A stretch of DNA of 63,557 nucleotides, counting the filler, from Bilabrum cf. latius (Eukaryota): assembly GCA_965178125.1 (NCBI GenBank). It is 3 parts of 3 records of this genome, joined end to end, with 100 filler letters (N's around TTAATTAATTAA, not from the genome) between each part and the next. Parts side by side here need not be neighbours in the genome. Positions count along the whole stretch, not along the records: positions 1 to 26,702 come from CBCXTV010000031.1; 2 more parts are not named here. The stretch is one strand, 5' to 3'. The position numbers were made by a program, and so were the translations under genes. The notes under the pieces were generated by a model that searched no databases, was not told the DNA's origin, and saw nothing but the letters and a program-made list of their open reading frames with translations. Positions within the stretch are counted from its first letter, which is position 1. Every line of letters starts with the position of its first letter. Positions 869-23,400 of the stretch are shown here, in pieces.

Positions 869-1072
869 GAGATCCGCACATACCTCTGCGGTGAACAGCA
901 CGTTACATGAGACCCTGACCGACCCGAGAGTCTCTGCCCTCAGTCTCCACGACTTCCCGCAGGATCCGCCCCGCTCCCACCGACGGCTCCTGCCGTACGT
1001 ACGACGCACCATTTTCAAAAGAGCATTGGCACCCGCTCCTCACCTAAGCGACGATACTGTCGCTGCGGTCCC

Positions 1073-2137: not shown

Positions 2138-3729
2138 CCGTTTAGTCTGCGGCCACGAGGCACGCGGCGAGCGTTACCACCGTGGACGCCTCCGTCGACC
2201 CCGTGTCCGGACGCGACTGGGGCCCTGTTGATGAGCGCATCGTGCGGGAGAGGCTGCTGCGGACTGCTGATGAAGCGGAGCTGGTCGACAGACGGAGCAT
2301 CGCTGGAGATGTCCTCCATGTCACACTCAAACAAGCGCCGTAGGGTCGAATGCAAGCGGCGCCTGCCGCTGGTAATGCCTGTCATATCGAAAGCGCCTTG
2401 CCACGAGCCAGACGAGAGCACTCTCTTCGTGCACTCAGCGACAACCCTGAGATGGCAAGAGACATCGACATGACCCGCTTCATGACGCGAGCGCTCCTGC
2501 ATCCACGTCTCCCGAAGGTCGCGCTTAAGAAGCTGAAAGACGAGAACGTCCAACGGCTGAAGCAAGAAGGTGAGTCGACCAGGAATAAACACGAGATCCA
2601 TGCCAAGGCCGTGTGCGAAGTTCACAATCTCAGTGGAAATGTGTTGGGGCGCGCAGTCAAGTATCACTATTGGATAGATCTCATGCTGAATGTCCATCCA
2701 AGAAGCGAAAAGCCGACGCAGAATGTCGAACATGAGGGACTGCGTCACCCACGAGCTCTCTCGGGCCCAGACTTCCATTCCGTCCACCATTTGGTTCGAC
2801 GCCCCACGCATCAAGCGCTTGCTCAGCCGCGTGTGCTTCCCGATGAGTATACGCGGGAGTCGTCGCTGGATTTCCGGGCAGTCGCTAATGAAACCCAGAA
2901 AGGTGTACGATCCTCGATTGCTATTCGAGGCGAGGCGCTCCGTGCGCGAACCAAGCGAAGCGGGCTCCGTTCCTGACCTCGGTGCGATGTACCCGCGCAT
3001 TCCCGGAAAGGCAAAGGGCACGCTGGACTCATCGAAGTTCACAAAGACGAGGCGGCGGTTGCGGGGCACTCGCGCTTCTGCGAATTCAATCCACTGATAG
3101 AAGACACGACACGCGAGTCTGACGTAATCGAGTGTTACCGGGGGCTGCTTCTTCAATCGGCCATGCCGAAGCCGCCAACGACGACGGAAGCGCAGGAGCC
3201 ACTGCCGTCGAGCCGAGTCCTTCCCCGCGCGAACGCCCATCCTCGCAAGCATGGCGAAAACCATGCTCCCAGTTGGAGCACACCCACGCTGCTCGTTCAC
3301 ATGGTCGATCCAAGCAACGACAGAAGCCTCGGCGAGAAAGGTCTCCGCGCGTGCCACGGACTCTCGATGACATGAGCGAAGAGGATTTCGCTGCCACGCC
3401 TCAACTGGGCGCCTCATGGTGAGCGCGACCTCCTCATCGACCTGCCTTTGAAACTCCTCCTGCGAAGCCGTCCGCGTGGAAACCTGTCGACTCTGCAACT
3501 GACGAGAGACATAGGTTCGAAGAGCTGCCTCGCCACCTCCGGGGTGATGACGAATAACCTCAGCGACCTGTGCCTCCATGGCGCGCAACCACGGATGGCG
3601 CAGCCCATTGCGCGCCCGTTGTCTCGCGTCTCTGAGACACTTCAGCTCCTTACTGATCCGTGCGAGCTGATCCGGCACCGAAGCAGAGGACATCATGACG
3701 CGTGAGGAACCGGGCAGAAGATCGCTCAC
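2092..3729 (-). CDS. pogo/Tigger-like (DDE_1 family) transposase, ~535 aa; likely ATG at 3693
   Basis: Catalytic triad motifs VNFDES, VILDCAPQH and FIPGRLTFLLQPLDVLVF. CENP-B/Tc5-type HTH signature WLLRFRRRW. Uninterrupted ORF. Confidence 0.9.
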   Translation of the reverse strand: MSDLLPGSSRVMMSSASVPDQLARISKELKCLRDARQRARNGLRHPWLRAMEAQVAEVIRHHPGGGEAALRTYVSRQLQSRQVSTRTASQEEFQRQVDEEVALTMRRPVEAWQRNPLRSCHRESVARAETFLAEASVVAWIDHVNEQRGCAPTGSMVFAMLARMGVRAGKDSARRQWLLRFRRRWRLRHGRLKKQPPVTLDYVRLACRVFYQWIEFAEARVPRNRRLVFVNFDESSVPFAFPGMRGYIAPRSGTEPASLGSRTERLASNSNRGSYTFLGFISDCPEIQRRLPRILIGKHTRLSKRLMRGASNQMVDGMEVWARESSWVTQSLMFDILRRLFASWMDIQHEIYPIVILDCAPQHISTEIVNFAHGLGMDLVFIPGRLTFLLQPLDVLVFQLLKRDLRETWMQERSRHEAGHVDVSCHLRVVAECTKRVLSSGSWQGAFDMTGITSGRRRLHSTLRRLFECDMEDISSDAPSVDQLRFISSPQQPLPHDALINRAPVASGHGVDGGVHGGNARRVPRGRRLNGWTPRDRAHPSAAMP

Positions 3730-4267
3730 AGCCGAAACGACGCGGACGGACCCGCTGCCAAGCTTCGCACTGCCTGTGGCCTCTGAAGATACCCGGGAGG
3801 GATAGGACGCAGGCGGGGAGCGAGAGCAAGCGAATGCCTTCCTGTCGCTGGAGGAGTGCTCAAAGCTGAAGACGCGCGGGAAGCACGCGCTCTGCTGCGG
3901 TCACACTGGCGCAAGCGAGACAAAACCAGGGAGAGGGATAGACACGTGCACAGCATTGAATACACCGCGCAGCATTGCGAGCGCGGTTTCTCGCCTGCGC
4001 TGAGCTGCCACTCTGCTCTCGTGCGGACGACATTGGCAACGGCAGCGCGTAGCTGCCAACTGGCCGTGCACGGGTACTGTATCGGCCACGGCAGCGCTGA
4101 GCTGCCAATTTCGGGTCGAGGAGCTCTCCTGAGGAAGACGAGGCCGGGAACTTTCGGCGAACACGCACACCCACCACCGCCCGGCACATGCGACGGCAAG
4201 CAATGTAAGGAACGACGTTGCGCGATCGAATCTCGACAGGAGGCTCCGATGCAGGAGCTGCCGAGGA

Positions 4268-4816
4268 CTAGGCACCGCCGGCGCCCGCCGCGCCGCTGGG
4301 GAGGACGACGGTCGGCGGCGGCGAGTCCTCGGAACCCATGTCGTCTGATCCTGAGGAATCCAGCACAGTTGAGGCAGTCTCGGTCATCTCCCAGTCCGTA
4401 CGCACCTCAACGATGAGACGACGCGGAGGAGCAGCGACTGCTGTGTCAGGTCCGTGGATGACGCCTCCGTCCACAAGACGGAAAGACCTACCCGCAACGG
4501 AGCCGCTTGCGCCAGACATCGCACGCCGAATCACGGGATCAAAGTCTGCATGGAACCGAGGAGCCTCATCGCGCAACAGGCCTGAGAGCAGCCTGATCAC
4601 ACTTTGGGCGTACTCCAGCTGAGCGCTCAAGCTTTCCGCACGCTGCTGCATGTTCTCGAAGCGCTGCTGCAGGTTCGACACCGCTGTCGAGTGAGGACTC
4701 GCTGGCGGGGCGGGGTTTGGGCGCTGCGGGGTCGCCACCGCGCGACGCGGCGACCTATCGCGGACAAAGGACGTCACCTCGTTCCGCGTCATGCTGCCGC
4801 ACCTCTCCTTCCTCAC
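4268..4816 (-). CDS. Hypothetical coiled-coil protein, ~175 aa
   Basis: Heptad segment LQQRFENMQQRAESLSAQLEYAQSVIRLL. The ORF stays open in the inverted copy at 61837-62382, which has a one-codon in-frame indel. Confidence 0.5.
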   Translation of the reverse strand: MRKERCGSMTRNEVTSFVRDRSPRRAVATPQRPNPAPPASPHSTAVSNLQQRFENMQQRAESLSAQLEYAQSVIRLLSGLLRDEAPRFHADFDPVIRRAMSGASGSVAGRSFRLVDGGVIHGPDTAVAAPPRRLIVEVRTDWEMTETASTVLDSSGSDDMGSEDSPPPTVVLPSGAAGAGGA

Positions 4817-5695
4817 ATTGACTCGAGCCGAATCGAAACTTGCAGGGACAGACGATCCTTTACCCTAGCGCTCCCCACATCGGGCATGAGTGGAATCCGA
4901 ACCAGCGCACGGCATCCCACAGGAGTTCGCACCGGGCTTGCCTCATGAGGAATCTTCCTGCGCGAAGAGGTAAAGCCACGGACAGAAGTCAGAGGTCGCG
5001 GGATGACACTCCAGCATACATGAGCTGCCCGCTGAATCCGCCGCCCCCGAGCCCCAAGCTGACAATCGAGGTAACAAAGTAGGAATGAGCAGGCGGGGGC
5101 GATGCCACTACGTCTCGCCGAACAGCCTGCCTCGCATGCGCTGTGCTGAAGACCTTATGGGAACCAGGAAGTGTGAACGTCTGTCACGTGAGGCGGAAGG
5201 GCTCCCACTGCATCACACCCCCTCTCTGGAATGGGATTTGGGCGCTGTGGGGTCGCCACCGCGCGACGCGGCGACCTATCGCGGACAAAGGACTTCACCT
5301 CGGTCCGCGTCATGCTGCCGCACCTCGCCGAATCGAAACTTGCAGGGACAGACGATCCTTTACCCAGCGCTCCCCACCCCGGGGATGAGTGGAAGCCGCA
5401 CCAGCGCACGGCATCCCACGCGAGTTCGGACCGGGCTTGCCTCATGAGGAATCTTCCTGCGCGAAGAGGTAAAGCCACGGACAGAAGTCAGAGGGTCGCG
5501 GGATGACACTCTAGGCACACATGAGCTGCCCGCAGAATCCTCCGCCCCAAGCTCCGAGCTCACAATCGAGGTAACAAAGTAGGAATGAGCAGGCGGATGC
5601 TTTGCCACTCCGTCTCGCCAAACAGCCTGCCGGGGAACCAGGAAGTGTGGACGTCTGCCACGTGAGGCGGAAGCGCTCCCACCGCATCACACCCT
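4715..5695. repeat. Imperfect tandem duplication, ~0.5-kb period
   Basis: 4716-5130 is repeated at 5237-5630, and 5160-5222 is repeated at 5633-5695. Confidence 0.9.
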
Positions 5696-7226: not shown

Positions 7227-7727
7227 CTCCCGGGCACCTTTCCCGACTCGCAGCCGGTCTCAGAGACGACCACGAATCGGCACGACAAGTGCGCCCGATT
7301 TCGTCCCCCGAAAAAGGACACAACTAGGACCCCGCGAGATCCGCATCTGCTCCTCACGCGCGGAACGTGTTTCGGTACGCAAAAAGCGGTCACATGGGAG
7401 GCCCGGAAAGCGTCCGGAAAACGGTTCAGAAATACCTTGCGTCACTCCTCCTGCGCGCCAGAAATCACACGACTTTTCGGTGACCGAAACAGGGCCCAAA
7501 AAACCAAAGATTTGCCCCTTCATGCCCGAAGACACAGCGTCACCGCCAAGCTGCCATCGCGGAGAAAATAAACCAGGTGGTGATGGAAAGTTACGTTACG
7601 GTGGAGCTCAGTGTCATTTGTGTGTTCAACAGTGTGTATGATGCCGCTTCGTCTGGATGTCCGAGTCCGGATTTCACCTGGGGTATGGCCTATTGTGTGG
7701 TCACGTTCGCGTAGCTTTCACGTGTCA

Positions 7728-7855
7728 ACAACGCGGAGGCTGCGAAAAGAACCATGCTCACGAACCATGCTCCACCGTAGCTTGATCACAACGCGGAGGC
7801 TGCGAAAAGAACCATGCTCCACCATAGCTTTCCAACAACGCGGAGGCTGCGAACG
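7728..7855. repeat. Three short direct repeats
   Basis: CAACGCGGAGGCTGCGAA(AAGAACCATGCTC) at ~7729, ~7788 and ~7836. Confidence 0.85.
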
Positions 7856-8059
7856 AACCGTGCACCACTGACCACCGTACAGCCCAAAAAGTACAAGTTT
7901 CTTGAACCCCAGGAGCAACATACGCGGGATACTGTCGAGCGCCCGTTCGCTCAGGTCACACGCGACAGCAAGCCGAACGCTCAGGTCGCACGCTCAGGCC
8001 ACACGCGGAAGCAGCGCCACGCAAGAGGCCAGGTTGAGAGGGAAAACCGTCACGCAAGC

Positions 8060-8911
8060 TCAACGCGGAGACCACGAGTCGTCATCGCTCCAAGCCTCGC
8101 GTCCAGACAGACGAACAAGCCCGCGCCATGCCTCATCGTAAAGATCCCTCTCGAAAACCCTGTGCTGCTTCATCGTTCCCAATGTCAGAATTTTCTCCGC
8201 AGTACAACGCTGCCCCTTCCGCTCCCCGGTCTCTACAATGAGATCCAACTGCATGCGAAGTGTTCCCGAGATCTTCTTCTTGTTCGCCGCGTTCATAATC
8301 GACGTCTTTGGCGCCGCGTCGCGCGCCTTCTCGCGACAAGCACGACAAGAAATCGCACCCCTGCCGCACGGAGAATCATCGGCATAAAGCGTGCGCTGCA
8401 CGCGACGTACGAGACGATCACGCATACGATGATTCAGGTCCGCCATGACACGATTGCAGCCGCAGGAAGAGCATACAAACTCCGCGAGGTTGAAAGCCTT
8501 AGAGTCCGACCAAACGACGCACTGTGTGTCCTGGGGTGCCTCACTGCCGAGCGCTGTTATGAGCACCGCCGGATGGGCCGGCGACTTAGGAAGAAGTCGC
8601 GAACCGGGAGGAAACACGCGAGGCCGCTTGAAACCGACATCTCCGGCAAGAGGCGCAAGCATCATCTCCACCTCGCCCTCCGGGGCGTGCTCGGAGGTCG
8701 ACGCGGCAACCACGGCCACATACGGTGCATCGGCGATACCGACGTAGGCCATCAAGCAACGCACCCACCTTCGGCCCGCGAGCGTACACGGCGCGCCTAC
8801 CGGAAGCAGAGGCTTCTGAGACCAAGAAATGTCTCGTCGGCGCGCGACGCGGCGACGTAAAAGCAAACGACCCGCCGGGTCCCAACCGCGGCACTGCGGA
8901 GACACACACAC
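8060..8911 (-). CDS. Conserved element zinc-finger protein (ortholog of 27182-27969); start uncertain
   Basis: VCSSCG...RLVRRVQR...SCRAC...PKTSIM...GTLRMQLDL...DLYDEA aligns by eye with SCEMCG...RVRRRVRR...RCRDC...PKNMVL...GAVKMTLEL...DLWAAA. Confidence 0.7.
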   Translation of the reverse strand: MCVSPQCRGWDPAGRLLLRRRVARRRDISWSQKPLLPVGAPCTLAGRRWVRCLMAYVGIADAPYVAVVAASTSEHAPEGEVEMMLAPLAGDVGFKRPRVFPPGSRLLPKSPAHPAVLITALGSEAPQDTQCVVWSDSKAFNLAEFVCSSCGCNRVMADLNHRMRDRLVRRVQRTLYADDSPCGRGAISCRACREKARDAAPKTSIMNAANKKKISGTLRMQLDLIVETGERKGQRCTAEKILTLGTMKQHRVFERDLYDEAWRGLVRLSGREAWSDDDSWSPR

Positions 8912-9156
8912 ACTTGCAACCCATCAGGCTGGGTGCCACGTGTGTGTGTGTCAGGCAAGCTCCCAATACTAGGCAAGCACTCCCCCGGACGAACGCGACG
9001 GACCACATGAAACTTGCGGAATGCCCCCATGTAGAAACCACATCCTTTTTGCACACGAAACGCATTGAGGACATTAGACCTTCAGGAGCACCGAAGCGGC
9101 TGCCGCTGCGGCTCCGGCGCTCGTGTGAACCGGACTGAAAACCTCAGCGGCCGGCG

Positions 9157-11442
9157 TCAGCTCTTCTGCACATCCGTGAGAGACAACAAGTCCTCGTCGA
9201 AGTAGAGCCGATCTTTCACCTCCACTTTCGTACAGTTGTTGTCAAGCCACTCGCGGTCCACCGACTCCGTCACGTCAGAGCCCCACGAATTCGTGCAGAT
9301 GATCAGGGCGATACCGTGGAGCCACACAGAGTATGCGAGGCTGTTCGTCTTGCTCTGGCCGAGCAGGGAGGGGTCAAGGCCAGCCTGAAAGACCTGTTTG
9401 TTGTTGACGACCCACAGGGCATTTGCCTCGTCGAACACAATGGCCACATGCCGACTTCGATCGAAGCCACGGAGCGGAGGTTCCACACTGCCCTGACAGT
9501 TCACAACAAGAGTCCTTTCGCTCCCGAAGAGATTCCGCGCGTACACTGTCTTCCCGAACCGGGAGTCCCCCACCAAGACAAGGAACTTGAAGCGCATGTG
9601 CGCGAACCACTCCTGACGATAGCTCTCGCGCCACTTCTCGACTTCGGGCACCACCTTAAAGGGGCGGAGCTTCGTCACTACGTGCACCGCGGCCTGCGCG
9701 CACACCTCTCTCCTCTCCGCGGCATTCTGTATGTGGAAGTCGATGGCGCGCACTAAGTTCTCGGCGTCCCGACACCGATACGCCACGAGTTCCCTTCTCG
9801 CGACGTCCGGATCCATTTTGAAGCGTGCGAACAACGCGTGCACGAACTTACCATTGACGACGAAATCGCGTCCGGCTCGGTAGTTCGTGGCGCAAAGCAG
9901 CGCACCGACTTTGGGAGCTTGACAATAATAGTGTAACTCCGACGCGCCACGTTCCTGCGCTTTCGCTGACCGCCCGGAGCCGTACACGACATTCGGCCTG
10001 CTGCCGGCCCACATGAAATCCTCCGCCACGCGACAACGATGCGACTTCTCGGAATCCGTCATGCATACGTGGAAGTGCACCAAGTTTGCGGCGTGCTTGC
10101 GGTGCAGGGAGAGCTCCATTTTCATGGACAGCTGAGGCCACATCATCCGCCGCGCGATGTCCTGCGCCCATGCCTTGAAGGTGGCCCAAAGCTCCACATA
10201 GAACGGAGACGCGAGAACCAATCGCCTCAGGACGCCCCTTGCCACGGATGCCGACATGATGTCGCGCACAGGCTCCTTTTCGACACCCCAGCGACCGTGA
10301 AAGGTAAGCATCACGGCCCTTCCCCGCCTCGTGTTCTTGTCGGACGCAGGCACAATCTCGCCCACGGGCACTGAATGCGATCCCGGATTCCTCACAACTT
10401 CGTCCCGCTGCCGCGCAAGCTCCGGGAAGAGCTCCTCGAAACGAAGCTGGCAAGGAGTGTCCTCCGCCCCCGCAGCCCAGTCTTTCAAGATGCACATGCG
10501 GTCACCGGGTACATTGCGAAGCGCCTCCCTGATGAGGCACCGCTTCCGCTGGTGTGACACCGACGCCGGAAACGCCAACTTGAAATCGTCAGGGAAAACC
10601 CGCAGGAGACGATAGATGACACTATCAATAGGACGAGTCGAAGGCCTTCCAGTCGAGCGCTGCGGCCCAGACGCTCCGGCCGCGGCACGAGCCGCGGGCG
10701 GAGGTCCGAGATGAGCCGCAAGACTCGATGCTGCATCGCCCTCAGCAGGGTCGCACTTCTGCCGAAGACGCCGCCTCTTCACGGGGGGCACGAAATCGGG
10801 AAGCATGAGCATCTGCGGTCGCCCCCTCGCATCGGGCGCAGAATCCTCGATGGGCAGAACCCCACGGTAACCTTGACTACTCCGCAGAAGCTGCACCGGC
10901 AAAAGTACTTCCTCTGACGGGGGTTCCAAATTGATGACACCCGCGGCGAGCGCTTCGGAGGCAGCAACGCGGCCAGGAATGTCGCCCTCAACGCTGAGGC
11001 CCTCATAAAGGACTCGTTCACCCACTACGCCGATCTGCCACTGACCGCTCGACTTGCCGTGGGACAACAAGCAGGCTCCCGGATCGCCCTCGCATTCTGC
11101 CTCGCATGCGACCTCGCATGAGGCCTCAATCATGTCGAGACTGGCGTCGAAGTCGTTCTCCGCATCGTCAAAGCCAAAACTCGGGACAGCGGCCGCGCGC
11201 GCTGCAGCCACCGAATTGGAGACACCGAGGCCACACGAGCACGTTGGGGACGCCTCGGACACCCCTAACAAAGCAGAGGTCGCCGTCGTGGACGCTTCTG
11301 ACTCCTGGCTTGTGGGGAGGCCATCGCACGGCACGCAGCTCGCGGAAACCCACGCGGGATCCCAGGAGCAGGATGCGACTCGGGACTTCAGCGACTCGGC
11401 AACAGACAAACTCATCGTTTCGCCCTTGAACGGAGCCGACAT
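9157..11442 (-). CDS. rep: CRESS/geminivirus-like replication initiator protein (HUH endonuclease + SF3 helicase), 761 aa
   Basis: Motifs in canonical order: motif I VMLTFH (~10300), HUH motif II LVHFHVCM (~10061-10084), motif III HYYCQAPK (~9910-9935), Walker A LVGDSRFGKT (geminivirus-like GDSRTGKT), Walker B IVFDE and motif C IICTN. NLS-like PPVKRRRLRQK. Confidence 0.9.
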   Translation of the reverse strand: MSAPFKGETMSLSVAESLKSRVASCSWDPAWVSASCVPCDGLPTSQESEASTTATSALLGVSEASPTCSCGLGVSNSVAAARAAAVPSFGFDDAENDFDASLDMIEASCEVACEAECEGDPGACLLSHGKSSGQWQIGVVGERVLYEGLSVEGDIPGRVAASEALAAGVINLEPPSEEVLLPVQLLRSSQGYRGVLPIEDSAPDARGRPQMLMLPDFVPPVKRRRLRQKCDPAEGDAASSLAAHLGPPPAARAAAGASGPQRSTGRPSTRPIDSVIYRLLRVFPDDFKLAFPASVSHQRKRCLIREALRNVPGDRMCILKDWAAGAEDTPCQLRFEELFPELARQRDEVVRNPGSHSVPVGEIVPASDKNTRRGRAVMLTFHGRWGVEKEPVRDIMSASVARGVLRRLVLASPFYVELWATFKAWAQDIARRMMWPQLSMKMELSLHRKHAANLVHFHVCMTDSEKSHRCRVAEDFMWAGSRPNVVYGSGRSAKAQERGASELHYYCQAPKVGALLCATNYRAGRDFVVNGKFVHALFARFKMDPDVARRELVAYRCRDAENLVRAIDFHIQNAAERREVCAQAAVHVVTKLRPFKVVPEVEKWRESYRQEWFAHMRFKFLVLVGDSRFGKTVYARNLFGSERTLVVNCQGSVEPPLRGFDRSRHVAIVFDEANALWVVNNKQVFQAGLDPSLLGQSKTNSLAYSVWLHGIALIICTNSWGSDVTESVDREWLDNNCTKVEVKDRLYFDEDLLSLTDVQKS

Positions 11443-11950
11443 TATTTGCGCAAATAATCCTTCGACGAATCGCGGAATGCCTCAAGATAGAACACTTGCC
11501 TCCGACACGCAATGCCCAGAATCCTTGCTGTTCGAAACACCGAAACTGCTGACACGGGACACACATGAGCACCGAGGCAGCTGAGTCTGCAGCTCGTGCC
11601 GCCCTGGGCGAGGTAGTACCGCTTCCGAGGGAAGGATTCTCGAAGCCAACGAAGGAAAGCATGGCGTTGCAATTAGCACGATCACAAACGCACTTCGGAG
11701 CCTGCCAGAGAGGATGACCGACCGACCGCCTTCTCGAACATAGAAACCGGCGAATACCACATGAGGCACGACGTTCCAGGGCATCCGAACCTGCGACATA
11801 CGCCAAAAAGGCCTCGCCGACAACCTGAAATGCACGCGAAATCGACAACCGAACGCCCAAAATCAGCCATCGGAACCCCCCCTCGAGGCAGCGCCTTCGG
11901 AGACATTTTCGGCCAGCGAAAAAAATGCGAAACACGACTGGAGGAGGCGA

Positions 11951-12260
11951 GGTAGTGCTCGGTAGTGCTCGTTTCGCGCGGTTTTTACATAAAAAAATGC
12001 CGTTTTTCTGGAAAAAAAAGCTCAAAAACCCCCAGTTTTTGACACGTAGTGCTCCGATTTTCCTGTAAAATGCAGGATTTTTTCACGGTAGTGCTCCCCT
12101 TTTTTCCGCTTTCCCCGACGCCAGGGACCGATGTAGTGCGATTTTCGGGGGAAGGATTCTTAGTACCTTAGAGGGTACCCCCGAGGGTCGCACTACGTGG
12201 GTTTGGGGGGTCTCCTTTCCTCTTATTCTCGCGTGCACTTTTCTGCGACTGCCCCCCGGA
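11951..12260 (+). promoter_or_regulatory. Putative rolling-circle origin: iterons plus long stem-loop upstream of rep
   Basis: (G)GTAGTGCTC at 11951, 11961, 12046 and 12087. A 21-bp stem with G-T wobbles pairs 12131-12151 with 12178-12198. The loop contains TCTTAGTAC (12158-12166). Confidence 0.7.
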
Positions 12261-12618
12261 CCTTCCGCGCATATCTGCTCGCTCTGATTCTACGGGGGGG
12301 CGGGGGTAATCAAGGATTAATGCCAAATTTGTCTTCCTTTCGTGCCCCTCCCGTTTTTCAAAGTTGTGCATGTCGAGTCTGCCCCTCCCGTGCTCTTGAC
12401 GACGGTGCTCGCGGACTGAGTGATTTCTGCCAGCACGTCCCGTGTATGCTGTCCGAGTGCGCGACTCCGCTGGGCAGCCGCATCCGCTGCTTTGTGCTGC
12501 TCGGGCTATCTGTGTCCGTCAAGACTGCGCTGTACTTGACGCTCTGCCCTCTTGCGATGGCTTCTGTGACGCGGGGTCTATCTGTAATCCTCGGTTCTCT
12601 GAACACGGGAAGCGCTTC

Positions 12619-13323
12619 TCACAAGGTCGACTTCGCCTGGCTCGTTGAGGAGTTGGCGGAGCTGCGTGCTGCGATCTCTTCTTTTTGCACCAACTGCAAG
12701 ATCTTCCTGTCTAGCACGATTTGGGCGAGCTCGTCGTCTGTGAGTTTTTTGGCGTTCTTCATGGTGCGCCTTTTCTGCCGGATGGTTTTGCGGATGGCCT
12801 TCGTTTTAGCCCGCTGCTCGAGCTTGAGAGCCTTGCGCTCCTCGGTAAGGCGTGTGATCGCTGCCGTCCACTTGTCGACGAACAAGGGTGTGTCGCCAGG
12901 TTCGTCCGTCTTGGCGGTCTTCTCTAGCGCTTCCATGTGTCCGTCTTTCGGGCAGGGCTCCTCGAAGAACTGCTGCGCATGATCTGGTTTCTGTGATCCT
13001 GCCTCCGTCGCTTCGGGTGGCGCCGCTGCATCCGCATCTCTAGGGGAGTCGAGCCGCATTGCGTCCTCCGGTTCTGCGTCGCTCGCCATGGGGTGTGCAG
13101 TGAGTTTGCTTCCTGAGTGGGCTGCTTTTCTGTGCGAAGCTTCTGGCAGTTGCTGTATTCCTGGGCCCAAAAAAAACTCAGCGAGAAGTGCTTTCACATG
13201 GAGGTGGTGCGGTAAGAAGTGCGCGGGTCCTTGTAGACTGAAGTGCTTCCTGCGCAGAATGGGAGAAGTTCCACTGCGGGGTCTCTCAGACGCGTCTGCA
13301 TGAGGAGGTGGGGGGTGCGTCAT
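12619..13323 (-). CDS. Small basic coiled-coil protein; likely ATG at 13089
   Basis: AITRLTEERKALKLEQRAKTKAIRKTIRQKRRTMKNAKKLTDDELAQIVLDRK, similar to RRHKRLMRRATRLDLEDLLEIAAAKK in Element 2. Confidence 0.65.
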   Translation of the reverse strand: MTHPPPPHADASERPRSGTSPILRRKHFSLQGPAHFLPHHLHVKALLAEFFLGPGIQQLPEASHRKAAHSGSKLTAHPMASDAEPEDAMRLDSPRDADAAAPPEATEAGSQKPDHAQQFFEEPCPKDGHMEALEKTAKTDEPGDTPLFVDKWTAAITRLTEERKALKLEQRAKTKAIRKTIRQKRRTMKNAKKLTDDELAQIVLDRKILQLVQKEEIAARSSANSSTSQAKSTL

Positions 13324-13964
13324 GGTTGCATGCGAGAAGGTGAGCTTCGAGGCGGCGCCTGGGAAAGCCTTTCTGGGTCGTCTGGATGCTGCGAAATTTG
13401 CGAAAAAGGGGTCCCAATTTTGGGCCCGTTTTCGGTGACAATTTCAAGCCTCCCGCATCGTGTTTTCCTCTTGTGTACCCCTTTTTGGGCTCAAAACTGG
13501 TCCCGGAAAGTGTGACCTCGAAACTGCGTCCTTCGCGGTCCTCCCTTTGGCTTCTGGGGCCTCAGGTGTTTCCCTTTTTTCTGTGGGCAGCACTCTTTTT
13601 TGCGGAAGGGCGTTCCAGATTTTTGTCTGACGATGCCGCTTTAAAAAAGGACTTCTGATGTGGTGCGTGCTGGGTCCTGTCATCTCCAGACTTCCTCCGA
13701 GGATGCACACATGAGCGGGAAGAGGACACACATTGGCAGAAGAACTTCTGGACTTGTGACTCTGAAGCGCTTTGCGACTTTGGCACTGCGTGCTGCCAGC
13801 GTTCATGCACCGAGAGCATGCGGATCTCCACGTGCTATGCGACTTCCGGAGAGAATGGGACCGATGGAACTATGTGACCCTCCAACTCCGGCGCTCGGCG
13901 GCCTTCTGCTGTTGCCTGCGGAGCTTTGTCTCCTCGCAACGCGCTGTTCTGCGGCATTTCGTCG

Positions 13965-16697
13965 TCAGGGCTCGTGCTTTACGCCGGGTGCCGGGGTCAG
14001 GCGCGCTCTCTTCGAAGGCTGTGCCTCAGTCCTGTTGGTGGAGGGCGACCTGGAATAGGATGAGGACGATCTGGAGCAGGATCTCGTGTCCTTGAGGCTT
14101 ACGCTCCTCGCGAGCTTCAACGAATTCCCGTGGAAGGTCCGCGGAAGGCTCACGTACTCCTCCTCGTCCACGTCATACGGCTCACTGCCCTGCTGCTGCC
14201 GCCACTGGTTGATCACAAGCTTGATGAACGTTTTGCCCCAGCTCCATTCGGAATGACTCTGTGCCTGCTCGGTGAGCCACTTGTTGTATGCGATGTTCAC
14301 CGTTTTGATGCCCTGCACCGCGGTGTAGAGATGCCCCGCGTTGAAGCGGTAACCTCGGTCGTCGGCATCCTGAAGGTTGTACCGGAGCCGGGCGTCCGCA
14401 TGGCCGATGTCGTCCGAGGGGATGTGCTCGAAGACCTTTTGGCACTGGCGGCTCACGAACGGGTCGACGATGCACTGCGTGCTTTCCGCGTACTTGATCA
14501 TGTGCCACATGGCTTCCTCGGCAAACCATTTGGAATAACTCAAGAGGTTATAGGTCTTGTCCTTGGCCCTTGAGTAGTTGTTCGCAATGTCCCGCAGTGC
14601 GGGCGAGTCCAGCACGGCGCGCCTCGTCTGGCACAGCGGGCCGTTCTTGAGGAGCTGCTTCCTGTTGCTCTTGTGCGGAGCGTACAGAGTTCGGATGACG
14701 TCTGGGATCACGGTGTCCGTGGCAGTCCTGCCCTTAAACATGAAGTGGTTCCAGGCCACGGTCCAGCTCATGATGGGATAGTGCACTTGCATCGGAGGTA
14801 TGAGCGTGAGGAGGCCCACGGTTTTCGCCAAGGATGCTCCCCAAGTAATCCAATCATCACTCGGGTTCTTCTCGTCGTGCCTCCTTTTGGGGATCATTTT
14901 CGGGAGGAGGAACGTTGGCGTTATGATGCGCTCCCCGAACTGCTTCGTGAGGTGCTTCATCATGCCCACCCAGACCTGTCCCAGCGGTTTGGTTGTCATG
15001 CGGATCACGACGAGGCGCGAGCTGCTGTCCCCCTTTAGGATGTCTTCCAACTCGTTCTGCAGCGCTTGCTTTGCCTCAAGGATGTAGTACTGGATGCTGT
15101 TGTCCTTCCCGTCGTTCATCCACTCCTGCTGCTCCTCTTGGCATCTCCCCTCGAGGCTATGCGCCGCCAAGTCCCTGTCGTCGCAGAGGACAAGCGCGTG
15201 GGTTGAGGGTGGCCACTCCAGCCATGAGGGCAGCTCGGCCCCCGGCATCTCCGTGTGGAGTTTATCGATCCACTTCTGCTTGACTTGGATCCATCGAGCG
15301 GTCTGCCATTTCAAGGGAGGCAGGGTGTTCATCTTGGGCCTCTTCATGGCTACCATGTCGAGCATTCTGTCGAGGGTGGGGATGCACATCATCGGCTGCA
15401 CCACGTGGATGCGGATGTCTCCGTACCTCAGGAAGTACGAATACGACCCGCCGCGTTTGTCCTGGAGGAGGTGGACGAACGTGTTGGTTTCGCCGGCGTG
15501 CTCGTGAACACCGCACAAGTCTTCGTAGGAGATGGGCACGCGCTCTGTTTTTTCCCAGACGAGGACAACCCCCCAACTCAGGGCCGCGCACACGGACATC
15601 ACGACGGACAATGTGTTTAATCGCTCGCCAAGAGTCCAGTCGTCACTCGGGTCGATCATTATGTACGGTTTCATACTGTGCCCTGCATCCGCACTTCGTC
15701 GTCCCGAGCCCCCCCACTCCGTGTCCATGCTCTCGGGAGTCGATGCGAGGACCGGGCTGGCTGCCAGCACAGATGTCATGCGGAGGCAATCTTCCCACTT
15801 CCATACCGGCCCTTGGAACGTGTCGAAGAGGCGGCGCCAGACGCAGCGTTCGAAGCTTCGGTTCGGGATCCGCATCTTCAGGAGCGCCTTCCTCCCCTCC
15901 GGGCTGATGAGATACCACTTTAGGCCCATGCCGACGTGGTAGGGGACCACAAATGTGTTGTCTACCCAGTGCGCCGGATAGGTCCGCACGTCCAAGAGGC
16001 GCTCGCAATTGTGGATGGAGGTGGAGTTTTCGCGCTGGAGGCTGACCATTCTCGGTGCTTCTGACCCCGCTAACATGGCCATCTGCGTCACCTTGGGGTT
16101 TTTCGCGATGGCGTGAAGAACTACGAGTAGCCGATCCACGCATGCTTCGCGAGGTTCGATATCATCTTCGACAACCATGAGCCATTCCGTCGGCGTGTGG
16201 TTCTCAGCCCACAGCCATGCGTTTCGATGGGATTGGATCGCCCCAACAGTGGCCGGATTGTATTTGCTCCAGTCCGTTATCTTGCCGGAGAAGATATCCA
16301 AGAGGGCCTGGTCTTTGACGATGTCGCGTCCATCTGGGTCCCTGTCGGTCTGCGGAAACACTGGATTGGGGAGCCGAAGGACCGCTCCCATGTGCTCGTG
16401 GAGTTCTCGCGCCCCTTTTTTTTGTCGCCACTCCTCGAAGCGGGACTCTTCCCTGCAGATCAGCAGACATGTCATCTTCCCGAGGTCCTGGCGATGGTGT
16501 CCGAATTGCGCCTGGAAGCCCGACATCTCCAGAGACGGGAAATGGCATGCGCTGTGTGTCCAGCGGCGATCTTGCACTTCTGCTCCCGAAACTCGCGAAT
16601 GCAGGATCCGGGAACATGAGCCTTGAAGGCGGCGGATTTTTGGATGGGGACACCCGCGTCCTCTCTTCGCGAGCTTCGTCCTGATCCGATGCCCCAA
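13965..16697 (-). CDS. Multidomain glycosyltransferase: GT25-like domain, followed by a possible fucosyltransferase-like domain; ~850-910 aa
   Basis: Long open frame with strong codon bias. GAIQSHRNAW...WLMVVEDDI resembles the GT25 pattern GCxxSHxxxW...LILEDD. TLGERLNTL...GVVLVWE resembles the GLGNRL motif of GT-B fucosyltransferases. Confidence 0.65.
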   Translation of the reverse strand: MGHRIRTKLAKRGRGCPHPKIRRLQGSCSRILHSRVSGAEVQDRRWTHSACHFPSLEMSGFQAQFGHHRQDLGKMTCLLICREESRFEEWRQKKGARELHEHMGAVLRLPNPVFPQTDRDPDGRDIVKDQALLDIFSGKITDWSKYNPATVGAIQSHRNAWLWAENHTPTEWLMVVEDDIEPREACVDRLLVVLHAIAKNPKVTQMAMLAGSEAPRMVSLQRENSTSIHNCERLLDVRTYPAHWVDNTFVVPYHVGMGLKWYLISPEGRKALLKMRIPNRSFERCVWRRLFDTFQGPVWKWEDCLRMTSVLAASPVLASTPESMDTEWGGSGRRSADAGHSMKPYIMIDPSDDWTLGERLNTLSVVMSVCAALSWGVVLVWEKTERVPISYEDLCGVHEHAGETNTFVHLLQDKRGGSYSYFLRYGDIRIHVVQPMMCIPTLDRMLDMVAMKRPKMNTLPPLKWQTARWIQVKQKWIDKLHTEMPGAELPSWLEWPPSTHALVLCDDRDLAAHSLEGRCQEEQQEWMNDGKDNSIQYYILEAKQALQNELEDILKGDSSSRLVVIRMTTKPLGQVWVGMMKHLTKQFGERIITPTFLLPKMIPKRRHDEKNPSDDWITWGASLAKTVGLLTLIPPMQVHYPIMSWTVAWNHFMFKGRTATDTVIPDVIRTLYAPHKSNRKQLLKNGPLCQTRRAVLDSPALRDIANNYSRAKDKTYNLLSYSKWFAEEAMWHMIKYAESTQCIVDPFVSRQCQKVFEHIPSDDIGHADARLRYNLQDADDRGYRFNAGHLYTAVQGIKTVNIAYNKWLTEQAQSHSEWSWGKTFIKLVINQWRQQQGSEPYDVDEEEYVSLPRTFHGNSLKLARSVSLKDTRSCSRSSSSYSRSPSTNRTEAQPSKRARLTPAPGVKHEP

Positions 16698-17584
16698 TTG
16701 AGCGCTCGACAGCAGGAACGATGAGGAACCTCAGTTCTGGTTTCGCATGTTTGCATGGCCTCTCGAAGCATGTCGTGTGCAGACCCTCCAAGCGCCTCGA
16801 TGTCTGAGCATCGCTTTCTCTCCGCACGCTTCGTGCAAGGAATGCAACTCGTGCGTACCATCGTGGAGTCCTGAGTCGTTGGCCGCGGACGCACTACGGG
16901 TCACAGAGACTCGGAAAGGGGAGCATGCCCGAATGCACATCGCGGACGGAATTTGTCCCACGCTATTGAAGGTGGTCACCGGACTCAGACTGCTGCGGTG
17001 CATGCTTCGCGCATTGAATGGAGGCGCGTAAAATCTTGCAGAATGCACAGAGGGGGTCATCCGAGCGGGATCTTTGTGTAGCATCTAGAGCGGCAGATCG
17101 TGCGCAGGGGAGAATCCACACGCGGACTCCGAGGAGTGAGTAAGGCCGGCCCTGGAAGTCGTGCCGCGAAAGCGAATGAGCGCAACATGGCGACTGACGG
17201 ACGTCGCACGCTACGTACTTGTGGTCGCCCTCGTCCGGTCGCCCATCCCGGCGAATGGTGGCGCTGCAAGATCTGCGATGCCCGTCCGTGCCCGTCCCTC
17301 CTGGACGGCTCTGCCGAGGATCAGGGACGCTCTGGTTGTTTTTCCCTGAGCACCTGCGTTTCGAAAGCGGTCTTCCGCGTTTGCTACTTCCCCTTCGAAC
17401 TCCCTGCATTTTTGGCCGGAAAAGGCAACGAAGACAGGCGTGTGCTCCATAGACTGCTCGGACGAGAAGGTGTGTGCAAGAGCCTTTCCCAATCGTCACG
17501 GGGGGTGAACTGCTGGGTCCGGAATGGATTTGACTCCTGGACTTTTGCGTGTGAAGCGTGAGGTGGGCGTGCTTCGTGGGAGGT

Positions 17585-19497
17585 TTCCGCATGCGGGGGG
17601 ACGGGAACTTTCCTGGGTCGCTGGGCCTGGGACCGGGTAGCGGGAACTCGGGGACTTTCCCCGGAAATGGATTCACAGAGCGTACGGTGATTTCCCGGGT
17701 CGCCCTTCTCGACCCCGAAGTGGAATTTGGCTTTCGGACCCGAATACAAGCTTAGAAGGAACTTTTTGTCTTCCGCGCCTGCGAAGGTGTGCCACGCGGG
17801 CGGTTCTTGTTCACGCACTTGCGCTGCAAGCAGTGAACGCGAGGCCGTCTGCGGTTTACGGCTACGTGTCATAGCGCGTCGTAGGATGTCGCGTTCCAAA
17901 AGAAGTCTAGCGGCTGGAGGGCGGTGAGTGAAGTGCACACGTAGTGATCGTGACGAACCGGGCGTCGACACTTGTCCTGGGCGACGTCCGAAACATCTAC
18001 GCTGCGCTATTACGGCCAGTCGTGTACGCTTGGTGTCGGAGGGAAGACCCCTACGGTGTATACGGTTGCCGACGAACATAGTGATGTGGTAAGCGCATTC
18101 GGAAGGGGGCGCACGAACGTGCGAGCAATAGCACGCCATTCCGCGTATCATGGTAGCCTGATATTACATGTGCCGCACAGAATTCTCAATCATTCGCGCG
18201 AAGTGTGTGCGGGGAGTACGCTTGGGGTGGATAGAAAAGAGATGTCGTCCGCAGGATGTGTGCTTCCCAAGGATTTGCTCGGAAGAATGCGGACGATCGT
18301 TTGGAATGCTGCTTTGCACGCAGACTCTATTTCATAGATATGCCTCCATTCGCTGTGACCCTCGTGCGACCGCTTCGGACGAGTTCCGCAATCTTCGCAA
18401 TCATGTGCATCCCATCTCGAGGTCTGCGGCAGCTTCTCCCGCAGAGGAGCCGCCGTGGGAGCCGCTTAGCATCCCCTCGTCGCAGGGACTTCACGGTACG
18501 GTGTTGTTTACGTCTCTCGGGGTTTTTGTGATGCTCAGGTGCGCGGCCTCTTGCTCTCTTCGTGACCGATTTCGTTGTCGCAGTGCTGTGGGTCTCCGTA
18601 ACGGGAATGTGAGGCAGTCTCGACACCTCGACGAGGTGTCATGCGTCATAAGGATCTGCGCGTCTTTGGTCACGGCAAGAGTGGGCGAGAGTCAAACGGG
18701 CAGAAATGATCGTAGCAGCAGCGCTCACGGGCCCGCGGCTCCGCGGTTCACTCCCGCTTGGGAGGGCTGACCAGCGTGTAGTGGGTGGGTCTTCCGGAAA
18801 GCGCCTAGAGATACTCATCGCATAGCCTTCCCTGGAACGAGTCCAGCATAGCCTTTTTTTTTTCGGCGGTCGTGGGGAGATACAATTCTCCCGCTGCGGA
18901 AGGCTGCACACTCCCGCATCGTGAAGTCAATCACGCAACACCGTGCCGACTCATGTACCGAGACCGATGCATCTTACCGTCAGCGGCGCTGGTGGAAGCC
19001 GCGCTGCGAACAAGCTCCTCTGCACCAGTTACCCCGCCTTTCCAATTCTCGCGCAACTGAACGTGACTCCTGTGGATACGCAGTTTCTTCACCCAGGGCG
19101 GGTGCTTCGCAACGTCGTGCGTGCCCCCTCTTGCCGTCGCGGGTGCTGAGACGCCTTCATGGTCATAAGGCGCCCTGAGCAGACTGCAGCGCGACTTCCA
19201 GTGACATTCCCGGCAAGAACACACTGCAGCTCACATGCAGCGAGCGGAAGGACCCAATCCCGCGCGTGGGGAGGCGCTATCGTGTTGTGTTGTGTGTCGT
19301 GTTTGTGGTTTATGTCGAGCTTTCGCACTGCGCGGAATCGGGAATTTCGGGGGTCCTTGGGCCCGGAATCGGGGACCGGAAAACTGAGGCAATTTTCGCC
19401 GCCAGATGGAGTGACGGAGAGTACCGTCGTTTTCGGGTCACCTTTTTCGGTCTCGAAATGGGAATCGGATTTGGGACAGGAATTGAAGCGGAGAAGG
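17585..19497. repeat. Diverged ~180-bp dispersed repeat (17585-17760 and 19320-19497)
   Basis: The two segments are colinear. Conceptual translations align: LLSLYSGPKAKFHFGVEKGDP versus LLRFNSCPKSDSHFETEKGDP. Confidence 0.6.
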
Positions 19498-19513
19498 GCC
19501 ACTCTAGGGCCTC

Positions 19514-20420
19514 CGGGAGCCCTCTTGGGGCCCCCAAACAGCAAAACAAACCCCGGGGCCCGAAACTGTGTCGCCGCAACTTAAATTCCTTGTGTGGATC
19601 GGCCATTTTTGGCCAAATCTGGGGGGGTCCCCTTCCGGGCCCCCCCAAAACGCTCCAAAAAAAAAACACCACAACGTGGCGTTTTGCGTCTTTTTAGGGC
19701 GGTTTAGGGGCTCTAAAATCCACTACAACGTGCGTTTTGCGTCTCTTTGGGGCGATTTAGGGGCTCTAAAATCCACCACAACGTGGCGTTTTGCGTCTTT
19801 TTTGGGCGATTTAGGGGCTCTAAAATCCACCACAACGTGGCGTTTTGCGTCGTTTGGGGGCTGCCTGGGGCCCATTTTTTCCACCACAACCTCGCGTTTT
19901 GCCTTTTTGGGGCCGGGAGCCCTCTCGGGGCCCCCAAACCGCAAAAACAAACCGGGGCCCGAACTGTGTCGCCGCAACTTAAAGTCCTTGTGTGGATCGG
20001 CCATTTTTGGCCAAATCCTGGGGGGGGTCCCCTTCCGAGCCCCCGAAAACGCTCAAAGAAAAAACACCACAACGTGGCGTTTTGCGTCTTCTTTTTTGGG
20101 CGATTTAGGGGCTCTAAAATCCACTACAACGTGGCGTTTTGCGTCTTTTTTGGCGATTTAGGGGCTCTAAAATCCACCACCACGTGGCGTTTTGCGTCCT
20201 TTTTTGGGCGATTTAGGGGCTCTAAATCCACCACAACGTGGCGTTTTGCGTCGTTTGGGGGCTCCTTGGGGCCCATTTTTTCCACCACAACCTCGCGTTT
20301 TGCCCTTTTTGGGGCCGGGAGCCCTCTTGGGGGCCCCGAAACAGCCAAAAAAAGCGGGGTCCGAGCTGTGTCGCCGCAACTTAAATTCCTTGTGCGGATC
20401 GGCCATTTTTGGCGAAATCC
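19514..20420. repeat. Higher-order satellite: ~400-bp units containing ~51-bp TTTAGGG-bearing subrepeats
   Basis: CGGGAGCCCTC starts units at ~19514, ~19914 and ~20317. The subrepeat is GGCGATTTAGGGGCTCTAAAATCCACCACAACGTGGCGTTTTGCGTC. Confidence 0.9.
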
Positions 20421-23400
20421 CCGCATCTGCTCCTCACGCGCGGAACGTGTTTCGGTACGCAAAAAGCGGTCACATGGGAGGCCCGGAAAGCGTCCGGAAA
20501 ACGGTTCAGAAATAAGTACCGTCGTTTTCCGGGTCACCTTTTTCGGTCTCGAAATGGGAATCGGATTTGGGACAGGAATTGAAGCGGAGAACGGACCCCA
20601 AGGTGTTACCTCTTGCCTCCATACGATGCTAGGATCTCCAGGTTTCTCAGTTTTAGGCAGCACTCGAAGGGGAAGCTTCCGACGGCGCGCCTATGACATG
20701 CTGCCACCCATCACCGTGGTCATCTGGAGGACTCCGCACCATTCGGAAAACGGCTCGCCCGCCGTGAGTGAACCAGCGATCGCCGTGTGCATCAGTAGGA
20801 CCCCCGCACCATTCGGAAAACGGCTCGCCCGCCGTAAGTGAAATGGCGTCCCGAAGGACCCGTGCTCCTTTTGAAAAACGGCTCGCCCGCCGTGTGTCCG
20901 CCGTGAGTGAACCAGCGATCGCCGTGTGCATCAGTAGGACCCCCGCACCATTCGGAAAACGGCTCGCCCGCCGTAAGTGAAATGGCGTCCCGAAGGACCC
21001 GTGCTCCTTTTGAAAAACGGCTCGCCCGCCGTGTGTTCCCGAGATCCTCCAGCCACGCCACCAGTCAATGTTCTCGCTCGCCGTTACGTCATGGAGCCCC
21101 ACGAAGTCGTGCAGATGATCAGGGCGATACCGTGAGCATCCTCCTTCTCCGTCTTCTTGCCGCCGTCGTACAGCCTGGCCGCGACACGATCTTGATGCCA
21201 AAACTCGAGGTTTCGCCGGCGTGCTCGTGAACACCGCACAAGTCTTTGACGATGCCCTGCATCAACTGGTCCTGCACCGCACACTGCATGCACGATGGCA
21301 TCGCGGAGATGAATTTCTCCGCATTCCGGAGAAGCTCCATGGCCCGGTTGATGTCATCCAAGGCCTCGTCACGCGAAGGACTCTGACGCACGGCGTTGCT
21401 GCAGGAGGCGGCGCCTCCTGCAGGAGGCTCGTCGCGTGCGGGAGCACGAGCGTCGTTGTCGCCGTCACCGGTATTCGCGCCAGCTTTTGGCACCCAACGC
21501 TTCGCTTCACCCGCAGAGGAACGGACATCATGGAGACTCCAGCCACGCGCAACCAGGCACTTCGCGCACCAGTCCTCAGGGAAGAAATAGCGCAGGTTCT
21601 CCTTCTTCCGGCGGTTCTGGGGAAATCGGTACGCCGGATACTCGTTTTTGCAGTTCTTGCACCACACCCACCACGGCGTCGCGTTGTCGAACTTGTCGCA
21701 ACACACCCGGCAAACTGGTTGGATCCAGTCCTTCCACTTCTTGAAGTACGCCGACCGGGGCTTGCAGCACTGGCACGCGTTGCAAGTCCATGTCGCCTCC
21801 TCCGCCGGCTCCGGCGCGACCTGCCGCGGCACGTACGTCTCCCCCCATGACGACTTCGCAGGGGTCTCCCATAGATCCCAGCTATCAGCGCCAGAGACCG
21901 CCCCGGCAGTGTGCGCAAGATTCACACGCTGCGATGACAATGCCTCTGCCACGCCGCCACCCGCCTTCCAAGCGGCTGCGTCGGTCCATACGTCGTCATT
22001 ACCTCCGGGCACCACAGCACGTCCACCGCCGCGAGCATCCTCCTCCTCCGTCTTCTTGCCGCCGTCGTCTTCGGCGTCCTCCTTCGGCGCTGCCTTGCCG
22101 CTCTCCTCTCCGAGCATCCCCGTGGACGCCGCCTCCGCGCCGCCGCTCTCGATGTGGGAGCCGCCCGAATCATCGACGCTTGCCGCCGCGCCGGCGTGCT
22201 CCGCCGGGGCGTCGACCTCGCGCGCCAACATGCCGCCCTCGTTTCCCATATCACCGGCGCCTCGACGCCCACGAAGATTGCGGCCGTCTCCCAAGGAAAC
22301 AGCAATGCTCTCGGACGGTTTCTCCTCAGACATCATCGGCAAAGAGACTCGGAGAATGCCGTTCCCGCAGAGTGCGCTGCTGACTGCCGAAGCCGAAAGA
22401 GGACCCGCGGAGAAGGAATCTCGCACATGCTCCCAGGAAAAGCAACTCCCCGCCCATTCCGAATGCAAGAACGGACTCCCGCCCTTTCCGAGATCGAGAG
22501 CGCATCGCGGGCGCATTTCCCGACTCGCGATCGGCCTCGGAAACCGAGATCTCCCGGGCACCTTTCCCGACTCGCAGCCGGTCTCAGAGACGACCACGAA
22601 TCGGCACGACAAGTGCGCCCGATTTCGTCCCCCGAAAAAGGACACAACTAGGACCCCGCGGATCTCCGCCGGAAACTCGTTTTTGCAATTCTTGCACCTC
22701 ACCCACCACGGCGTCGCGTTGTCGAACTTGTCGCAACACACCCGGCAAACTGGTTGGATCCAGTCCTTCCACTTCTTGAAGTACTCTGACCGGGGCTTAG
22801 GCCCTGGCACGCGTTGCAAGTCCATGTCGCCTCCTCCGCCGGCTCCGGCGCGACCTGCCACGGCACGTACGGCTCCCCCCATGACGACTTCGCAGGCGTC
22901 TTCCATGAACCCCAGGTTCCGACATCCTTCCCGTCTGCCACGCCGCCACCCGCCTTCCAAGCGGCTGCGTCTGACCATACGTCGTACACGACATTCGGCC
23001 TGCTGCCGGCCCAAATGAAATCCTCCGCCACGCGACAACGATGCGACCTCTCGGAGTCCGTCATGCATACGTGGAAGTGCACCAGGTTTCCGGCGTGCTT
23101 GCGGTGCAGGGAGAGCTCCATTTTCGTCCCGCTGCCGCGCAAGGTCTGGGAAGAGCGTCCGCATGGCCGACATCATCCGGAGCAGGGCGTCCGCATGCTC
23201 GACATCATCCGGGGGATGTGCTCGAAGACCTTTTGGAACTCGCGGCTCACGAACGGATTGACGATGCTCTGCGTGCTTTCCGGGGGGATGTGCTCGAAGA
23301 CCTTCTGGAACTCGCGGCTCACGAACGGATTGACGACGCTCTGCGTGCTTTCCGGGGGGATGTGCTCGAAGACCTTTTGGAACTCGCGGCTCACGAACGG

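Follow-up and report, generated by a model that had tools for sequence, protein, structure and literature searches.

Transposons of the pogo and Tc1-mariner type are recognised by a transposase with a DDE_1 domain and DD35D spacing, by terminal inverted repeats (TIRs), by TA duplication and by short excision footprints. The pCRESS and red-algal Rep plasmids are capsid-less circles replicated by a Rep of the CRESS type (circular single-stranded DNA that encodes a Rep); we know of no transposase or TIRs in them. Begomovirus origins, as described in PMC10653810, have iterons between rep and a stem-loop, with rep on the opposite strand, and PMC6607972 gives the components of Geminiviridae as 2.5-5.2 kb. 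In the account of PMC10288648, Replitrons have no helicase and Helitrons have an SF1B helicase; the Rep is itself the transposase, with no DDE partner and generally no target-site duplication (TSD). The nearest precedent found for the locus discussed here, likened by its description in PMC3198968, is a decayed element of the truffle Tuber melanosporum that has Rep, transposase and TIRs: a geminivirus-like transposon with interrupted open reading frames (ORFs), 37-bp TIRs, no TSD and interspersed copies. The locus itself lies in a window of 63,557 nucleotides, filler included, that joins three separate contigs of the Bilabrum cf. latius assembly GCA_965178125.1 (G000; 48.6 Mb, 111 contigs). Its central feature is a long hairpin, ori2 (12131-12198, plus strand), beside a rep gene. 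Sequence comparison argues, with a probability of roughly 0.75, that Rep binds and nicks this hairpin, which would be the origin of a capsid-less mobile element of the nucleus with a CRESS-type HUH/SF3 Rep and a pogo DD35D transposase. That the site is an origin, the non-nicking variant included, appears safer still, because its position, strand and architecture match those of hairpins in sister families and strand skew independently peaks there.

The window begins with the entire contig C74 (1-26702), and its two N spacers (26703-26802 and 53342-53441) each carry an AT 12-mer. Folding and haplotype comparison place the arms of ori2 at 12133-12151 and 12178-12196. The stem has 19 bp, three G.T pairs included, or 21 bp counting two outer pairs, and GTAGTGC is present in both arms, much as an earlier note on the sequence had described; the outer 9 bp form an invariant inverted iteron pair. 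The fold (-23.8 kcal/mol, z -5.13) was equalled in stability by none of 200 shuffles, and ori2 scores highest of all hairpins within 7401-19500. Inside the 26-nt loop, an invariant AAGG/CCTT stem that the earlier note overlooked (12152-12155 pairing with 12166-12169) surrounds a nonamer and closes a 10-nt loop. The whole loop and the outer 9 bp of the arms never vary in the G000 haplotypes seen, of which there are only four distinct and close rows, so that invariance among them says little. The nonamer, TCTTAGTAC at 12158-12166, is the 6/9 match to TAATATTAC that had been reported; TAATATTAC itself has 0 occurrences in the window.

Ori2 lies 716 bp from the rep ATG, after a small basic ORF. 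The iterons that the earlier note placed between rep and the stem are there, all on the plus strand: two tandem copies of GGTAGTGCTC at 11951-11970 (starting at 11951 and 11961), and by sequence match a third, GTAGTGCTC, with the first G missing (12046-12054) and a fourth, again a copy of GGTAGTGCTC (12087-12096). Four copies of GTAGTGCTC occur in the window against 0.18 expected, and at least four were reached in 0 of 100 shuffles. The four upstream iterons were found in 36 of 36 counts at rep-side origins, some sites being recounted via overlapping stretches; none stand beside a second origin copy, ori1.

The rep gene (9157-11442) is on the minus strand and reads away from the hairpin, in agreement with the earlier note. 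Its 761-aa product has a long N-terminal extension, an HUH motif (HFH), Y-x4-K, an SF3 Walker A (GDSRFGKT), Walker B and motif C, with the HUH, Y-x4-K and SF3 Walker motifs all within the last 392 aa. All 60 aligned homologs keep H87, H89, Y137, K142, G256/G261/K262 and N349. Pfam gave no match to the ORF, with 0 Gemini families, and a weak Gemini_AL1_M match in four of 60 relatives. Structural matches of the protein model (pLDDT 74) include Rep68 of adeno-associated virus, Vientovirus Rep and geminivirus Rep domains; against BFVD the model finds CRESS Reps at 10-17% identity, and its neighbours in a feature atlas are Cressdnaviricota Reps carrying Gemini_AL1. The protein belongs to a large family, which counts 680 representatives at E<=1e-30 (2330 at E<=0.001); the organism-named relatives among 20 clusters looked up come from Cladocopium and Symbiodinium. 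IMG/VR scans returned 0 Rep relatives, the two exact 17-mer matches there sitting in unrelated coding DNA; tblastn of Rep against PLSDB gave no match, GTDB one short contig of a metagenome-assembled genome, and PDB sequence searches were uninformative. The Rep tree is a quick version without known viral references and thus places the protein only inside its own family.

Is the arrangement confined to this unit? Additional Reps came up on ten other contigs when G000 was searched with a relative, and several of these repeat every 13.7-15.1 kb. The nine contigs fetched represent five other Rep families, 26-31% identical to the product of 9157-11442, and in all nine Rep and a DDE transposase occur together. 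Gene order in C58, C55, C50, C102 and C61 is transposase, small basic ORF, intergenic hairpin and rep. A motif, xAATATT(T)AA, is found in a hairpin loop in all nine, once per unit and on the strand opposite rep (chance 0.001-0.006 per 2 kb); in the eight contigs measured, this hairpin is 0.1-1.3 kb upstream of the rep start. The arms in C50, C55, C61 and C73 are built from family-specific repeats, with extra copies close by. Ori2 has the same position, strand and architecture as these hairpins. Conservation beside other rep copies, on which the earlier note had staked its interpretation, therefore holds by position, with an iteron-armed hairpin in five other Rep families.

Strand composition provides a separate line of evidence. 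Over the 26.7-kb unit the cumulative A-T skew peaks at 12035 and the amino-keto skew at 11938. The amino-keto peak falls within 200 bp of the motif in seven of nine sister contigs, measured over 10-kb stretches, and C89 fits by A-T skew only. Four-fold sites reverse across ori2 (A40:T80 in rep, A55:T30 in the cargo ORF) despite all genes being on one strand.

The unit to which the hairpin belongs (1-26702) repeats head-to-tail, base 26702 running into base 1 in C44, C45 and C49, and C44 carries a dozen tandem copies. The loop 14-mer has 108 occurrences in G000, and the 100 listed are all on C44-C93, none on C1-C43. Rep, ori2 and cargo form an 11,987-bp module (module B, 7435-19421) bounded by imperfect TIRs and TA: the left TIR (7435-7531, plus strand) has TA ahead at 7433-7434, and the right TIR (19328-19421, minus strand) has TA after it at 19422-19423. 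This TIR of about 95 nt scores 61, where 300 random windows reach 52.5 at most. Module B is absent from some units, and the seven primary empty sites read TA-AG-TA in four cases, TA-G-TA in two and TA in one. Such a set of junctions is the footprint pattern of Tc1/pogo excision. The left TIR is also joined to TA sites at 8558-8559 (C87) and 11755-11756 (a contig of run X12), which with 7433-7434 makes three. An intact pogo-like transposase (2092-3696, minus strand; D222/D347/D383, a DD35D triad) is encoded outside module B; its DDE_1 match (E 1.4e-11) is above the cut-off and its HTH_Tnp_Tc5 match is weak.

A second hairpin copy, ori1 (680-816, plus strand), escaped the earlier note. It is 88% identical to 12125-12257, has the same loop, lacks upstream iterons and lies between 55-bp direct repeats (619-673 and 818-872). 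In one C106 copy an ori2 hairpin is preceded by a left flank resembling that of ori1; the switch between the two falls outside the loop. Two accounts of ori1 were considered and rejected. Replicational release between the two origins predicts hybrids at irregular spacings; these are absent from the 20 stretches targeted, and irregular units without module B are seen instead. The view of ori1 as an older unit's native origin is weakened by its lack of iterons and of a skew switch and by the flanking direct repeats. The degenerate half copy noted previously between the rep start and the iterons (11609-11640, plus strand; 5' arm and AAGGATTCT) is real; it ends three bases inside the nonamer, not at the nonamer start, and its fold is not notable (z -1.3).

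Where in the loop would Rep cut? The preferred candidate, TCTTAGT/AC (12158-12166, cut 12164/12165, plus strand), is the one proposed in the earlier note, and the chances that it is the nick site seem about even. It is weighed more because it lies on the 3' side of the 10-nt loop closed by the invariant stem and keeps T/A at the cut; the family motif in C58, C50 and C73 takes the same inner-loop position, and TCTTAGT/AC is invariant across haplotypes. Its rival, AAGGATT/CT (12152-12160, cut 12158/12159, plus strand), is a possible site though a doubtful one, and a cut at some other position would be just as doubtful. AAGGATTCT matches TAAGATTCC, given in PMC10653810 as the nonamer of Eragrovirus and Becurtovirus, at 6/9, equal to the match of TCTTAGTAC with TAATATTAC, and AAGGATT/CT is kept whole in the half copy. 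Two X11 contigs (depth 2-3) leave the reference at 12158, right after AAGGATT/CT, and one joins at 12194; the run contigs X11-X14 are short and of low depth, and none crosses 12159-12178. Junction mapping did not bear out a nick at TCTTAGT/AC: no junction falls there, and the module ends are TA-flanked inverted repeats 4.7 and 7.2 kb off. The alternative inner hairpin of the earlier note, GTACC/GGTAC, is present in the minimum-energy fold and kept in the G000 copies; its second GTAC is altered in one depth-4 X13 contig, a weak argument against it. A further nick-site candidate, AAGGATTAA at 12311-12319, was discarded on account of its position outside the hairpin, its weak fold (z -1.9) and its absence from ori1.

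Beyond G000, 57 Rep loci from metagenomes were compared, 14 of them at least 5 kb long. A transposase accompanies Rep in 13 of the 57, or 11 of the 14 longer loci; several of these are close kin, representing about seven lineages in the tree. When ORFs of 16 element groups were clustered, the sole core was Rep (15 groups) and DDE transposase (13), and other clusters spanned at most five. No capsid family was matched in Pfam scans of 26 ORF queries and no capsid-like cluster appeared among the 16 groups; several ORFs of the element remain unannotated. L078 and L080 have their own repeat arrays upstream of rep, and L094 and L099 have a common TAATACTAA motif there. The origin had no nucleotide-level counterpart in any of the 57 loci. 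L089 (13,155 bp) has a 99-bp direct repeat at its ends, as expected of a circle, and inverted repeats enclose transposase plus rep in L111 and L118.

A number of results count against a nicked origin at ori2. Its loop is without the sister-family motif (4-5/9 matches), and AAGGATTAA, which matches that motif at 6-7/9, stands outside the hairpin. Moreover, xAATATTA[AC] has 0 occurrences upstream of rep in 59,975 bp of 51 metagenome loci, so the motif is not family-wide. The stem covariation anticipated in the earlier note did not appear: 0 pairs are altered on both sides among the four close haplotypes, and three of the 19 pairs, all inner, are broken in some copies. Neither the C55 hairpin nor ori1 has a skew peak. 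If both nick sites were active, their direct-repeat arrangement might have produced some crossovers, and in 20 targeted stretches there are no hybrid origins between ori1 and ori2, the flanks all matching. Finally, reversal of skew at the origin fits bidirectional replication or transcription better than one-way rolling circle. Such findings raise the alternative that Rep binds an origin or promoter switch without nicking it and is loaded as a helicase in the style of papillomavirus E1 or polyomavirus T, driving replication or transcription both ways. The missing loop motif and hybrids would suit this, as would the skew reversal at the hairpin, seen across several kb as well as at four-fold sites. 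However, the nicking residues are invariant in 60/60 homologs, and sister families keep a geminivirus-like loop motif on one fixed strand, which leaves an un-nicked origin unlikely.

Could the hairpin instead be the terminus of a rolling-circle transposon of the Helitron, IS91 or Replitron kind, with Rep as its transposase? An HUH Rep beside a hairpin and the tandem copies would agree with this, and so would the departures at 12158 and the junction at 12194 in the X11 contigs. It is nevertheless improbable, since the hairpin is internal, no G000 copy examined shows a break in the flanks of either origin, and the element ends in TIRs, with TA duplication and footprints of the DDE type; the Rep differs too, Replitrons being described in PMC10288648 as without helicase and Helitrons as SF1B. 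If the element were a geminivirus-like CRESS DNA virus, endogenous or episomal, whose capsid went unrecognised and which acquired a transposase as integrase, this would explain the Cressdnaviricota neighbours of Rep, the origin layout, the circular-looking L089 and the unannotated ORFs. Yet only Rep and DDE are shared by most element groups, the Pfam scans of 26 ORF queries for a capsid and the two IMG/VR scans for relatives were negative, and units of 12-27 kb with glycosyltransferase-like cargo and a long terminal repeat (LTR) insertion are out of character, making this quite improbable. A last reading is that repeat shuffling in a satellite-like array left the hairpin behind as a passive by-product and that the tandem layout is an artefact of amplification or assembly. 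It is hardly credible and for the hairpin already largely refuted: the same position, strand and architecture recur in five families of such low identity, runs of six studies hold the region at 0.85 or more of its words, and units differ by discrete, footprinted events. The fragment mosaic at 19424-26702, the placing of ori1 between direct repeats like a captured piece and the lack of host flank at the contig ends fetched are what this explanation has in its favour.

If ori2 is a Rep-nicked origin, Rep would bind the GTAGTGC iterons as direct copies near its own start and as inverted copies in the arms; the hairpin would open, and Rep would nick the plus strand in the loop. Rolling-circle and/or recombination-dependent copying would then give head-to-tail multimers of 14-27-kb units, from which the transposase would excise TIR-bounded modules and insert them at TA sites. 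The job appears to be split, module B supplying rep and the full origin and the remainder the transposase and a captured minimal origin, so that the two parts would complement each other. A broader proposal, tentative and rated at a little under even odds, is that such elements make up an undescribed class of self-replicating eukaryotic DNA transposons: capsid-less, pogo-mobile nuclear episomes or concatemers, replicated by their own HUH/SF3 Rep from a geminivirus-style origin, that may be widespread native replicons of dinoflagellates (680 Rep clusters at E<=1e-30), with families coexisting and recombining in one host, their own iteron codes and complementing Rep-only and transposase-only halves.

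Three further ORFs of the 26.7-kb unit are on the minus strand. The small basic ORF (12619-13323), which is coiled-coil and whose true start is uncertain, is also found upstream of the origin in sister families. An 853-aa cargo ORF (13965-16526) is glycosyltransferase-like, as a lead only (score 0.89), and a 230-aa ORF downstream of rep (8060-8752) is common to L079 and the second segment of the window. The stretch at 19424-26702 is a variable mosaic of unit fragments, including a decayed rep piece (25065-25880) and an empty TA site copy (20421-20594). Also variable from unit to unit (19513-20420 and 23211-24381) are 54-bp and 401-bp repeats just beyond the right TIR and 72-bp tandem repeats copied from part of the cargo ORF. 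A variant without module B makes up the third segment of the window (53442-63557, minus strand), with a TA-AG-TA excision footprint near 59257.

The second segment (26803-53341) holds a different tandem element with a 14,660-bp unit, a pogo transposase split into two ORFs, a GT/RapZ-C-like ORF common to metagenome relatives, an AT-loop hairpin near 30915-30975 and only a C-terminal remnant of Rep (32026-32310); it is probably a rep-less member of the Rep and pogo class. The transposase is split at an identical Lys codon, followed by GT or GC, in L089, L078, L111 and the window at 35270-36364, which suggests a conserved intron whose donor is GC in two of the four; the copy at 2092-3696 is uninterrupted. 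Among other observations on relatives, a TIR core, CGTCACTCC, a few bases after TA, is common to the C58, C50, C102 and C52 families (L144, L147, L150, L160). In the C63 copy (L062:1-1714, L064:4682-7310), pieces of the C102/C50 and C89 families interrupt rep, a mosaic indicating that families recombine with each other. L108 has 5.6-kb perfect inverted arms (1-5634 and 11793-17426) around transposase and rep, with imperfect palindromes at the tips, and may be a linear form with hairpin ends or else a product of assembly. The origins of C55, C61 and C58 have a G-run/AAGGATTC-like motif close by, which recurs in L080 (L146:2035-2204, L154, L144) and also matches the 5' arm end of ori2; it is possibly a host-factor site rather than a nick site.

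In which organism do these elements reside? The ribosomal DNA array of G000 is on C12 (L034), and a different 18S, which we take to be dinoflagellate, is on the small contig C95 (L033). C111 (L169) carries an AT-rich, organelle-like small-subunit sequence, which with the two 18S types implies mixed organisms in one assembly. Runs under six organism labels, from six studies, hold 0.85-0.93 of the words of 9000-13500, one of them perhaps the source, and no RNA runs are among the listed holders; such sharing fits a shared co-cultured host of which only high-copy DNA was assembled. The elements probably belong to a dinoflagellate sequenced along with the assembly's main organism, not to that organism itself. 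A copia-like LTR insert in C63 (2.6 kb, TG...CA, with a short duplication) points to a nuclear location. The contig ends fetched showed no host flank, a result with which chromosomal arrays and episomal concatemers agree equally.

On the proposed reading, a hairpin first likened to that of a geminivirus would serve as origin to a large recurring family whose CRESS-type Rep and pogo transposase form a stable pair. This bears on the route by which the Reps of single-stranded DNA viruses become transposon engines, and it may account for "Replication-associated protein" genes in Symbiodiniaceae assemblies. With six origin families in one assembly, iteron-Rep specificity is directly testable. Dinoflagellate nuclear genomes are hard to transform; the set of origin, Rep and transposase offers a basis for testing an episomal or integrating vector in them.

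The Rep and pogo family is apparently undescribed in the literature searched, which extended to neither Repbase, subscription journals nor supplements. The main text of PMC9651163, on viral genes in Symbiodiniaceae, has 0 whole-word occurrences of CRESS, Rep, rolling or gemini, supplements aside, and "dinoflagellate" has 0 in that of PMC10288648. The elements are like Replitrons and Helitrons in being eukaryotic mobile elements with an HUH Rep. Unlike Replitrons, which have short terminal direct repeats, they end in inverted repeats and have an SF3 helicase; unlike Helitrons, with a Y2 Rep fused to SF1B and no TSD, they have SF3 motifs and TA duplication.

The likeness to begomovirus and other geminivirus origins extends to iterons placed between rep and the stem-loop, an opposite-strand rep and an HUH and SF3 Rep, and xAATATTAA of the sister families is one base from TAATATTAC. 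The begomovirus-like origin of the earlier note thus stands in layout and strand, whereas the element is not a geminivirus. Neither TAATATTAC nor TAAGATTCC is present in the loop, where the best matches are 6/9 (TCTTAGTAC among them); the loop has 26 nt, the iterons are built into long arms, the units measure 12-27 kb, and there is a pogo transposase, no capsid found, no Gemini_AL1 match and a non-plant host. The resemblance of GGTAG to the iteron of tomato golden mosaic virus described in PMC10653810 is probably coincidence, because sister families use other iterons. The pogo/Tc1-mariner traits of a DD(D/E) transposase, TIRs, TA duplication and footprints are present here, together with a replication initiator, an origin and a size of 6-27 kb that those elements do not share. 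The transposase is outside the TIR-bounded module in the 26.7-kb unit and inside TIRs, as in autonomous pogo elements, in the relatives L111 and L118. Closest of all, the Tuber melanosporum transposon, as PMC3198968 presents it, likewise has a Rep-like gene and a transposase within TIRs and amplified recently. That description includes no origin, whereas the elements discussed here combine an intact Rep and DD35D transposase with TA duplication, footprints, a defined origin and tandem units, and do so in many lineages.
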